From contig JBPOJN010000020.1 of the NCBI GenBank assembly GCA_052033505.1, forward strand, positions 7,888-71,887: 64,000 nucleotides of DNA. The letters are read 5' to 3'. Each line of letters starts with the position of its first letter. Position 1 is the first letter of the stretch. This document shows, piece by piece, positions 41,767 through 42,531 of the stretch. The notes beneath the pieces are model-generated. The model was not told the origin of the DNA, searched no databases, and saw only the letters and a list, made by a program, of their open reading frames with translations. The stretch comes from Myxococcota bacterium. GTDB taxonomy: Bacteria > UBA10199 > JACPAL01 > GCA-016699445. The position numbers and the translations under genes were made by a program.

Positions 41767-42004
41767 TTCGTCCGAAACCGCTCTCATTATCGGCCGGATT
41801 TCGGATGCTTTGAGTTAAATTCTTCCGCCTTCGTGCGGAAAATCCCTGGCTCCTATTTTGCTCCACTGCCTCCGAGAAAGGCAGGGGCACACCTGGGCCA
41901 GATTCGTTCTGAGAATAAATTATCGACTTCTCTTTCCGACACCAAATCGAATGTGCAAATCCTTACAATGCTGAAGCGCTTCTCTTGCGATTAAAAAACG
42001 AATT

Positions 42005-42041
42005 CCCCCTCTTAGGGTAAGAGGGGGTTAGGGGGCGTTAT
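42005..42041. repeat. 37-bp palindrome-containing repeat (copy 1) upstream of the DUF559 gene
   Basis: CCCCCTCTTAGGGTAAGAGGGGGTTAGGGGGCGTTAT. First 23 nt form a 10-bp-stem/3-nt-loop hairpin. Identical copy at 42456-42492. Confidence 0.85.
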
Positions 42042-42044
42042 TCT

Positions 42045-42419
42045 ATGACAGTCCCACCCCTCTACAATCATCCTCTCCTCAAAGATCGACGCCGAGAACT
42101 CCGCAGAAACCAAACGGACGCAGAAAAAATTTTATGGAGGTCTTTGAGAAATCGTCAGGTTTCTAGCTTTAAATTTTTTCGGCAATATAGCATCGGGCCC
42201 TACATTCTCGATTTTTTCTGTCCCAACCTACGCCTGGCAATCGAACTCGACGGCGGGCACCATGACGAAGAAGAAGTGAGGGAGTATGATTTGCAAAGGA
42301 CTGAATTTTTAATGACTCAAGATGTTCGGGTAATGCGTTTCTGGAATACGGAAATTTTAGATAATTTAGACGGGGTTTTAGAGAAAATCGCCGTGGTCGG
42401 CACGCATAACCCCTCCTAA
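42045..42419 (+). CDS. DUF559 (Vsr-like endonuclease fold) protein
   Basis: LRRNQTDAEKILWRSLRNRQVSSFKFFRQYSIGPYILDFFCPNLRLAIELDGGHH...RVMRFWNTEI matches the DUF559 consensus. GC ~46%, well below flanks. Confidence 0.75.
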   Translation: MTVPPLYNHPLLKDRRRELRRNQTDAEKILWRSLRNRQVSSFKFFRQYSIGPYILDFFCPNLRLAIELDGGHHDEEEVREYDLQRTEFLMTQDVRVMRFWNTEILDNLDGVLEKIAVVGTHNPS

Positions 42420-42492
42420 CCTCCCCTTACTTTAAGGGGAGGAATTCCCTTCTCTCCCCCTCTTAGGGTAAGAGGGGGTTAGGGGGCGTTAT
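42420..42492. repeat. REP-like hairpin (42420-42442) plus second copy of the 37-bp repeat (42456-42492)
   Basis: CCTCCCCTTACTTTAAGGGGAGG hairpin directly after the stop, then GAATTCCC...CCCCCTCTTAGGGTAAGAGGGGGTTAGGGGGCGTTAT identical to 42005-42041. Confidence 0.85.
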
Positions 42493-42531
42493 CCCATCGA
42501 CTTTAAGAAAACGATCGTCTTATATTTTGGC

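Follow-up and report, generated by a model that had tools for sequence, protein, structure and literature searches.

A DUF559 nuclease gene framed by palindromic repeat modules: a candidate selfish cassette in a Myxococcota contig

Proteins of the DUF559 (YcjD-like) family have a solved structure and almost no assigned biology, and short palindromic repeats of the BoxC type have neither a known origin nor a known mobilising enzyme. Among described systems, those that come closest to pairing such a protein with such a repeat are the repetitive extragenic palindromic (REP) sequences with their RAYT transposases and the free-standing homing endonucleases of the EDxHD type. BoxC has been described as a palindromic repeat of about 56 bp present in 22-32 copies (PMC2267715). 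Reviews of the PD-(D/E)XK superfamily and of homing endonucleases name DUF559/YcjD and EDxHD, and do so without flanking repeats; the only in vivo data that we found for a DUF559 protein are those on Caulobacter VsrA, which causes SOS-inducing DNA damage when a cytosine methyltransferase is missing (PMC12907096). We found no description in the literature, with most subscription journals outside our coverage, of an association between DUF559 and flanking palindromic repeats. The present work deals with a locus of this kind, in a stretch of 64,000 nucleotides of contig JBPOJN010000020.1 from a Myxococcota bacterium (assembly GCA_052033505.1), which we call the window and whose coordinates are used throughout.

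We understand this locus, with about even confidence, as one copy of a compact selfish cassette that spreads into its own cognate palindromic repeat. What is chiefly uncertain is whether the unit is an active selfish cassette or a domesticated partner of the repeats. An original prediction, made on the window alone, had proposed that the gene and its hairpins form one unit, and this is borne out: the same unit recurs, conserved, from phylum to phylum and in genomic surroundings that are unrelated.

The nuclease gene and its repeat modules

The features on which the argument is built are the following.

42045-42419, plus strand: open reading frame (ORF) for a DUF559/YcjD-like nuclease of the Vsr fold, 124 aa (Pfam, alignment, PDB entry 3HRL, AlphaFold2 model, Foldseek)
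42004-42046, plus strand: first copy of the direct repeat, with 38 perfect nt (42004-42041) and, when 2 mismatches are allowed, 43 nt that run into the AT of the start codon
42455-42497, plus strand: second copy of the direct repeat, perfect over 38 nt (42455-42492), made of hp1 (42456-42478) and R1 (42479-42492)
42005-42027 and 42456-42478, plus strand: hairpin hp1 of the 5′ module, CCCCCTCTTA-GGG-TAAGAGGGGG, 10-bp stem and 3-nt loop
42028-42041, plus strand: G-rich right tail R1, first copy, TTAGGGGGCGTTAT
42406-42421, plus strand: C-rich left tail L2, ATAACCCCTCCTAACC, the R tail in inverted form (the R-tail motif matches on the minus strand with 3 mismatches)
42420-42442, plus strand: hairpin hp2 of the 3′ module, CCTCCCCTTA-CTT-TAAGGGGAGG, directly after the stop
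42443-42455, plus strand: 13-nt spacer AATTCCCTTCTCT, from hp2 to the second hp1
42406-42492, no strand assigned: composite two-hairpin palindrome P, L2-hp2-spacer-hp1-R1 (RNA and DNA folds; composites elsewhere)

The direct repeat that the original prediction had given as perfect over 37 bp is essentially as described, and the 10-bp-stem, 3-nt-loop hairpin does stand at the start of each copy, as does a third hairpin immediately after the stop codon (TAA, 42417-42419). The architecture, in contrast, had been misread as two direct repeats accompanied by a merely related third hairpin. The true layout is [hp1-R1] - gene - [L2-hp2] - 13-nt spacer - [hp1-R1], that is, an inverted pair of modules around the gene, together with a duplicated 5′ module: the segment 42406-42442, made of ATAACCCCTCCTAACC and hp2, is an inverted copy of the whole hp1-R1 module with compensatory changes, the differences between hp2 and hp1 being compensated transitions. 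Likewise the motif GAATTCCC, said to precede both copies, turns out to be out of register: at the first copy it lies at 42000-42007 and overlaps the first three C of the hairpin, and at the second it lies at 42442-42449, with TTCTCT between it and the hairpin.

The modules reach into the coding frame at both ends. In most homologues the R tail ends in GTTATG, the ATG being the start codon of the DUF559 gene; in the window this ATG is replaced by ATT and the start is found a few nucleotides further downstream, at 42045. At the other end L2 covers the last four codons (HNPS) and supplies the TAA stop. The first hp1 folds as DNA with -10.2 kcal/mol (z -3.5). Because 42406-42442 is an inverted module, 42406-42492 forms one composite palindrome, whose predicted folds are a long stem or a Y; it reaches -54 kcal/mol as RNA (z -4.85) and is Y-shaped as single-stranded DNA on both strands (z -4.6 and -4.8). 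This composite of about 86 nt is matched at 75-80% identity over 85-91 nt in loci L205, L076, L071, L184 and L198, and occurs in other genomes alone or around DUF559. Shuffles of the window give 0.00 expected matches for hp1 or the tail motifs, and no further copy of hairpin or tail was found in the 64 kb, even with three mismatches or relaxed patterns.

The encoded protein is a bona fide member of the Pfam DUF559 (YcjD-like) family, in keeping with the original prediction: PF04480 matches residues 13-116 with 122.8 bits for a cut-off of 20.6 (E 7.3e-36), and all the residues that are invariant in a 24-sequence alignment of the family are present (D56, E67, D69, H73, D82, R85, R98 and W100). 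Five of them, D56, E67, D69, H73 and D82, identical in 24/24 sequences with that of the window counted among them, make up the Vsr-type active-site pattern D...ExD..H...D. The Vsr family model is itself unmatched in Pfam, where the protein finds only DUF559 and a sub-threshold MTES_1575; nor does Pfam find Y1_Tnp, the HUH Y1 transposase domain. The closest sequence relative in the PDB is N. gonorrhoeae NGO0050 (3HRL, phmmer E 9.3e-19), a structural-genomics entry without function. An AlphaFold2 model (pLDDT 88.8) was matched by Foldseek to 3HRL (E 5.5e-6, target-normalised TM 0.85) and to the catalytic domain of the homing endonuclease I-Bth0305I (3R3P; E 1.9e-4, probability 1.00, target-normalised TM 0.81), with weaker matches to the nuclease domains of PvuRts1I and AbaSI and to E. 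coli Vsr (1VSR, E 0.2). The family is large, with 25,530 clusters at 50% identity (E up to 1e-3, representative library), and in many members the domain is embedded in proteins of 300-1,200 aa. For orthologous or closely related pairs dN/dS is 0.10-0.45, which places the protein under purifying selection.

In composition the gene is foreign to the window: its G+C content is 45.1% for a window mean of 54.9% and 55-62% in the local flanks and adjacent genes, so that the contrast noticed in the original prediction stands, its background of 60% being slightly high. The exact protein is absent from a catalogue of 153 billion genes in which both neighbours' proteins, as given by the NCBI contig, are present; this may be due to a missed gene call or to withheld data.

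One may ask whether a gene so framed is not simply an acquired repair or defence nuclease, solitary and Vsr-like or accessory to restriction-modification, whose hairpins, like the solo hairpins elsewhere, act in cis as expression signals, through end-pairing of the mRNA, stabilisation, insulation or control of translation. Caulobacter VsrA, with its DUF559 domain, depends on cytosine methylation when it acts on DNA (PMC12907096), which speaks in favour of this, as do the frequent association of the family with type I, IIG and III restriction-modification genes, the fact that the R tail gives the start codon and the L tail the stop, and the complementarity of the 5′ and 3′ tails, which could close the mRNA; solo elements, too, often abut start codons, with GTTATG in 43 of 142 tails. 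Yet the coding strand shows no T-run after the hairpins, which are therefore not canonical terminators, the spacing from GGAG in the R tail to ATG, about 2 nt, is too short for a Shine-Dalgarno sequence, and Rfam gives no relevant family and no group I or II intron (the locus at E up to 10, the whole window at the gathering threshold). There is no adjacent cytosine methyltransferase gene in the window, and no methyltransferase gene of any kind within 2 kb, the neighbours being a NUDIX hydrolase and proteins without family. Such cis signals would, moreover, leave unexplained the in-frame insertions into ORFs, the locus-specific perfect repeats of 30-58 nt, the gene-less mini copies and the three-state alleles described below. 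We regard this explanation as improbable.

Two narrower roles for the hairpins were considered and rejected. For an intrinsic terminator, there is no terminator-like site on the plus strand at the modules, and a T-run exists only for a minus-strand reading of the first hp1. For mimicry of Shine-Dalgarno or anti-Shine-Dalgarno sequences by the hairpin arms, the likeness to CCUCCUUA is approximate and the distance from tail to ATG too short.

As regards the surroundings, a sigma-70-like promoter match, TCGACT-18-TATATT, begins where the second repeat copy stops (42497-42526, plus strand) and leaves 5 nt to the start codon of the NUDIX gene at 42532; the cassette thus abuts that gene's expression signals. 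Further upstream, a cobalamin riboswitch (RF00174, 74.5 bits) at 38261-38440 on the plus strand precedes a pair of genes, 39628-40680, coding for a lipoprotein-like protein with a Big_2 domain, and 40699-41766, coding for a protein with a twin-arginine signal, no family and almost no homologues. The DUF559 cassette is at the 3′ end of this cluster, which is presumably regulated by B12.

Conservation of the unit and solo copies of its repeat

Homologous metagenome loci with enough flank numbered 69. A pyrimidine-arm hairpin was found upstream of the DUF559 gene in 65/69, downstream in 63/69 and on both sides in 59/69, the same detector finding a hairpin in 4.8% of control windows (160 nt, at least 700 nt from the gene). 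Homologues that are 55-68% identical in protein share the same hairpins at the level of DNA, and the polarity of the arrangement is fixed: upstream come hp1 and then GGGGGAGTTATG, where ATG is the start codon in most loci, and downstream TAACCCCTCC (or TAACCCCCC) followed by a hairpin that in most homologues is of the hp2 type or the CCCCCCTTA type. Translated repeat is seen in the homologues as C-terminal ends (…ITPPSPPLNLRGG, …VTPPNPLLP) and N-terminal extensions (…RGLGGVM), the L2 region being read as ...TPPxxPL...; that the C-terminal extensions of these ORFs are repeat DNA matters for annotation. The stem of hp1 shows covariation, with 97% of cells paired and changes on both sides in 7 of the 10 pairs; none of 500 shuffles reached the observed values, and no slid register came close. 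Between the window and locus L003 synonymous sites are saturated (pS 0.95) and hp1 is identical, loop included, which indicates that the modules are under strong selection at the level of sequence and have long travelled with the gene. The type of hairpin follows the clade of the protein: the …CTTA type accompanies 52/55 members of the FxRQY clade, and the CCCTCTCC or CCCTCCT types 11/14 members of the RRQH clade, with the matching tails GGGTGAGGG and GGGGTGGTC.

These observations leave little room for a coincidence, in which a generic REP-like repeat happened to fall on either side of the gene, or for an artefact, in which the assembler had threaded a 451-bp loop of another genome through a shared 38-nt repeat. 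The order A-R-X-R-B is, to be sure, the topology of an assembly loop, the hairpin is widespread and mostly unrelated to DUF559, and the k=31 Logan contigs stop within the repeat at either side of the gene; such breaks, however, are what is expected of a k=31 graph at a genuine repeat with two contexts. Against either form of this explanation stand the 20-fold enrichment of hairpins at the ends of DUF559 genes, the conserved polarity, and the recurrence of this three-module layout in independent assemblies, namely L003, L004 and L005 (three samples) and L247; a repeat of 38 nt is also below the length of the final k-mers with which metagenome assemblers usually work. The flanking genes are 100% identical in the independent Logan assembly of a second run. 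An assembly loop is therefore an unlikely source of the layout, and the explanation as a whole is the one to which we give least credence.

The repeat also exists away from the gene. A scan for CCYCCYCTTANNNTAAGRGGRGG yielded 35 stretches of viral contigs and, among the matches listed, 120 stretches of genomes, the latter from Patescibacteria, Nitrospirota, Desulfuromonadales, Syntrophia, Chloroflexota, Clostridia and Gammaproteobacteria, several metagenome-assembled genomes (MAGs) contributing two hairpin loci each. The DUF559 genes that do occur in the genome loci listed all lie within 200 nt of a hairpin (6/6), and when the ORFs adjacent to hairpins were compared all against all, DUF559 was the sole family recurring across independent loci among these matches; both facts argue against chance juxtaposition. 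In one of its solo forms the hairpin sits within a larger palindrome, ATAAC(N)CCCCC-hp-GGGGG(N)GTTAY; the other is the two-hairpin composite L2-hp2-spacer-hp1-R1, in either orientation, which is the element found at 42406-42492 in the window and is formally the junction of the 3′ end of one unit with the 5′ end of another. Tails co-vary with hairpins, hp1 going with GGGGGAGTTA, hp2 with GGAGGGGTTA, and CCTCCTCTTA with GGAGGAGTTA.

The viral contigs (L007-L041), which are phage-like, carry up to four solo palindromic elements each, for instance at 581, 3388, 4101 and 10919 in L009, and at 1347-1399 and 3104-3156 in L030. Many of their right tails end in GTTATG at the start of the downstream ORF, or else the left flank reads CAT, so that the elements may supply or target start codons. 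A duplication of TA within CATATG was considered as the target duplication of solo elements and set aside, the flanks being too variable to decide.

The composite calls to mind the attachment sites of integrons, and it could be supposed that it is an attC-type site, with ATAAC...GTTAT as its outer stem, and that a promoterless circle of ORF and site was inserted by a tyrosine recombinase at a resident site. The composite palindrome, imperfect and about 86 nt long, does have AAC...GTT for its outer stem, the gene begins right after GTTAT, the direct order site-gene-site and small arrays are seen, and solo sites could act as empty attachment sites. The core consensus GTTRRRY, however, is violated, T or C following GTTA in 97 of 142 tails (T 64, C 33, A 31, G 14), and the cores of the window read GTTATTC and GTTATCC where RYYYAAC / GTTRRRY would be expected. 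Among the matches listed no integrase recurs beside the elements and DUF559 is the sole cargo family; the window holds a single cassette between ordinary genes, and the same site is found in Patescibacteria, in Clostridia and inside ORFs. We consider such a scheme very improbable.

A degenerate relative of the unit can be recognised in E. coli. There the stop codon of ycjD, a DUF559 gene, lies within a degenerate pyrimidine-arm hairpin, after which come a partial duplicate of the 3′ end of the gene and a [hairpin+TTAGGGTGAGGGG] element (K-12 1351000-1351800, L244). A hairpin with a GGGTGAGGGG tail stands about 150 nt downstream of the gene. The locus differs from that of the window in its hairpin type (CCCTCTCC...), in the clade of its protein (RRQH) and in the missing upstream module; it is a decayed version of the unit. 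The downstream element, which we tentatively take to be BoxC from the consensus of that family and from copy number, occurs at a median of 19 places per genome in 5,426/5,426 complete E. coli genomes. In about 2,080 of these 5,426 genomes (ST131, L245, for example) the interval between fabI and sapF holds a TetR plus RND efflux operon in place of ycjD, and the breakpoint between the two arrangements lies just before the BoxC-like element.

It is in this light that a symbiosis of the REPIN/RAYT kind must be weighed, in which a single-copy, vertically inherited DUF559 gene, retained by the host, would disperse or maintain the repeats in trans without itself being mobile, the perfect flanking repeat having arisen by gene conversion among repeats; its place between two repeats would be the usual residence of such enzymes, like that of RAYTs between REPs. 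On either side the gene has inverted copies of a repeat with many more copies elsewhere, orthologues persist under purifying selection, the repeat type changes with the nuclease clade, and E. coli has one ycjD for some 19 BoxC-like copies per genome: all this is as such a symbiosis would have it. It accounts poorly for near-identical gene units in unrelated flanks, for a gene present or absent at one orthologous site, for the foreign composition of the gene in the window and for the absence of other repeats within its 64 kb; the repeat is also kept in E. coli genomes that do not have the ycjD region, and strand-transfer chemistry is not known for PD-(D/E)XK nucleases. We see it as unlikely, though deserving attention.

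Possible mobility of the unit and a proposed route of insertion

The selfish cassette that we favour finds its first support in the distribution of near-identical copies. Units 85-90% identical in DNA occur in unrelated flanks, the similarity stopping at or just outside the modules: this is the case of L190/L204 compared with L209, with L210/L215 and with L219, and of two further groups (L164, L172 and L173; L171, L180 and L195). Two subgroups have extra outer terminal inverted repeats, GTAACAGGTAAGTTTTTC … GAAAAACTAAACTATTAC in one and GGCTCTTCCGGCTTTTGTGTGGGT … ACCCACAGAAATGCCGGAAGAACC in the other, and in L209 a gene-less mini copy, its 5′ end joined to its 3′ end, comes right after the full copy. 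In the subgroup L209/L190/L204/L219 the outer repeats GTAACAGGTAAGTTTTTC / GAAAAACTAAACTATTAC are 18-19 nt long, and the copy of L219 is placed directly after the 3′ end of a tRNA.

The second line of support is the flanking repeat itself, which the original prediction had taken for a target duplication or a recombination site. In 71 loci, 90 nt upstream were compared with 250 nt downstream for perfect direct repeats of at least 30 nt. Such repeats were present in 8/71 loci (58, 57, 45, 41, 40, 38, 35 and 34 nt) and in 0/420 cross-locus pairs, several of them ending at GTTATGA(T), that is, at the start codon. The flanking direct repeat is thus recurrent and locus-specific, as that proposal would have it, and repeats of the class seen in the window are the signature of a local duplication at insertion, or of recombination between a resident and an incoming module.

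The third comes from a distant sublineage in which the unit lies in frame inside HsdR, a Mod-like methyltransferase, type IIG-like enzymes and another large protein. Homologues of the HsdR site were searched with the insertion removed and then aligned. The same linker position is empty in five homologues (62-72% identical); it holds a solo [hairpin+R tail], read as SPLAGEGRGEG, in P0274/L248 and P0276 (the DNA having been checked in L248); it is filled by [hp-R]-DUF559-[L-hp] in L226, and by [hp-R]-DUF559-[L-hp]-[hp-R] in P0290/L247, where a direct repeat of 35 nt has one mismatch. The last arrangement is exactly the three-module layout of the window, made of a different hairpin sequence. The state with one repeat and no gene, which the original prediction had named as something to search for, is accordingly found, at one orthologous site in a distant sublineage and not in the genome of the window. 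The direction of change may be either from solo to filled by insertion, or from filled to solo by recombination across the repeat. Comparison of flank with flank by BLAST among the fetched loci gave filled orthologues only and no empty sites.

Several other arrangements near restriction-modification genes deserve mention in their own right. In L076, a Desulfuromonadaceae MAG (2618-3454, 3552-3929), a type I restriction-modification locus has a DUF559 unit between its hsdS and hsdR genes. Ahead of this unit a 220-bp segment, made of the 3′ end of hsdS plus a two-hairpin composite, is repeated 3.8 times in tandem (96% matches), which suggests a repeat-mediated duplication of the end of the specificity gene. 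L246 (2483-4514) has four divergent DUF559 paralogues in tandem directly upstream of hsdR, the first three fused in an ORF of 377 aa; examined as a possible unit-P-unit array (P0125/L246), it consists of divergent paralogues with few hairpins and is neutral as to a rolling-circle origin. In L218 (open frame 3-2894) and L223 (1152-3671) large proteins of restriction-modification type contain many hairpin modules translated in frame (SPHPNPLPGGEGM, SPLPxGEGxGVR), along with an in-frame DUF559 unit, much as Rickettsia palindromic elements do. Elsewhere, in L239 (1905-2789), a unit between rpsP-like and rimM-like genes continues in frame into RimM, these neighbours being identified by sequence motifs only.

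From these elements a scenario can be drawn. The cassette would consist of the YcjD-like nuclease gene, of a 5′ module (hp1 and a G-rich tail, usually with the ATG) and of a 3′ module (a C-rich tail with the stop, and hp2), and it would reside in, and spread into, the solo [hairpin+tail] modules or the two-hairpin composites of genomes and phages. The nuclease would recognise the repeat, probably in a folded or cruciform state, and cut it; the gene would then be copied in by repair from a filled copy or, alternatively, an excised circle [gene-L2-hp2-spacer-hp1-R1] would integrate at a resident hp1-R1 module. In the process the target module would be duplicated, one copy on each side of the gene. 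Applied to the window, a resident hp1-R1 module upstream of the NUDIX gene would have yielded hp1-R1 | gene-L2-hp2-spacer | hp1-R1, with a period of 451 bp; the still-perfect 38-nt repeat suggests a recent event or ongoing gene conversion, and recombination between the repeats would restore a solo module. Because the two halves of the composite differ by transitions, we may speculate that a fold in which the hp2 half pairs with the hp1 half would contain T:G and C:A (or C:C) mispairs, the class of substrates of Vsr enzymes. A different geometry, with the gene inserted into the loop of one palindrome, was rejected: it predicts L-hp...gene...hp-R, the opposite of the observed order.

The cassette reading is favoured, besides the three lines given above, by the linkage of gene and hairpins, the fixed polarity, the selection on the flanks, the agreement of hairpin type with protein clade, the foreign composition of the gene and the DNA damage that a DUF559 protein causes in vivo in Caulobacter (PMC12907096). 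Of the homing-type endonuclease seen in the original prediction, the fold is matched by that predicted here; the cutting of the repeat, the route of insertion and the mobility are what we infer from the comparison of loci. A number of observations weigh against the scenario. The protein of the window consists of the catalytic core only, without the extra DNA-binding domain of known homing endonucleases, and homology arms of some 20-40 nt are short for RecA-dependent homing. The 64 kb of the window contain the repeat nowhere else, and so offer no visible pool of targets. The flanking genes were seen only in the source contig and one Logan run, the next relative being 52% identical, and the evidence on empty alleles thus comes from another lineage. 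Most copies of the hairpin have no DUF559 gene beside them (the gene is present in 6/120 genome loci among the matches listed and in none of the 35 viral contigs), so that the repeat must spread or persist without a gene copy in cis, and the ycjD region is present in 3,346/5,426 E. coli genomes while the BoxC-like repeat is in all. The original prediction had foreseen that hairpins unrelated to DUF559, together with a lack of empty-site polymorphism, would point to coincidence: the hairpins are indeed without the gene in about 95% of the listed genome loci and in 35/35 viral ones, and the polymorphism does exist, as empty, solo and filled alleles at the single HsdR site. Finally, orthologous filled loci persist across 10-30% divergence of their flanks (L163/L165/L177, L190/L204, L210/L215, L233/L237/L242), with dN/dS of 0.10-0.39, as would also be seen in a gene that benefits the host. 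The unit, then, is not hyper-mobile; it may be of use to its host and, given the purifying selection, the gene may have been domesticated.

A larger proposal, which we put forward tentatively and regard as possible rather than probable, is that YcjD-like DUF559 nucleases are the cognate enzymes of pan-bacterial polypyrimidine/polypurine palindromic repeats, E. coli BoxC included. They would form a new mobile system in which the nuclease recognises the folded repeat (possibly through T:G and C:A mismatches), nicks it, and drives a gene conversion that copies the repeat alone or the repeat with the gene, also in frame into restriction-modification genes, where the copies become translated linkers. 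Were this true, both DUF559 and a class of short palindromic repeats would gain a function, and a second class of enzymes, the Vsr-fold nucleases, would join the REP/RAYT paradigm. It would also explain the 'DUF559 domain' insertions of restriction-modification enzymes and the low-complexity peptides of the PLPxGEG type, and biochemists would be offered a small nuclease with a defined target of structured DNA.

Comparison with known systems

Several systems share one trait or another with the unit. Rickettsia palindromic elements (RPE) are reportedly short palindromic repeats inserted in frame in genes, with no associated nuclease gene and in Rickettsia only; the likeness lies in the in-frame, translated insertion, which both solo modules and whole DUF559 units show here in HsdR, Mod-like and type IIG-like genes. 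Integron cassettes resemble the unit in their site-gene-site order and in the imperfect palindrome, with AAC...GTT as its outer stem, that comes after the ORF; they differ in their core consensus and in their integrase, whereas the present elements have one cargo family among the matches listed, lie inside ORFs and occur in phyla without known integrons. Vsr and Caulobacter VsrA belong to the same superfamily as the window protein, VsrA containing a DUF559 domain, but the Pfam Vsr model is unmatched and no methyltransferase gene is linked to the gene in the window; to our knowledge, hairpin flanks have not been reported for VsrA. The E. coli element next to ycjD, putatively BoxC, has an architecture analogous to that of the window element, and is found at a median of 19 places per genome where 22-32 copies are reported of BoxC.

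The EDxHD homing endonucleases (I-Bth0305I, 3R3P) have in common with the unit their catalytic fold and, as far as the HsdR site of a related lineage shows, selfish-looking alleles, filled and unfilled, of the target. The DUF559 unit, however, has neither an N-terminal DNA-binding domain nor an intron or intein around it, and in the window its flanks are chromosomal genes; its putative target is a dispersed palindromic repeat instead of a unique site in a conserved gene, and insertion would duplicate the target module. With REP/RAYT systems (REPtrons, REPIN-RAYT) the likeness is one of organisation: one nuclease-type gene between inverted hairpin repeats that are far commoner elsewhere, a repeat sequence that co-varies with the lineage of the enzyme, and two-hairpin composites that resemble BIMEs or REPINs. 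Yet DUF559 is a Vsr-fold PD-(D/E)XK nuclease where RAYT is an HUH Y1 transposase, polypyrimidine/polypurine hairpins with a mirror-related tail take the place of GTAG-hairpins, these hairpins are common to several phyla instead of species-specific, and it is the DUF559 gene itself that is present or absent, in unrelated flanks. The unit works most like REP/RAYT systems and free-standing homing endonucleases, and is a member of neither.

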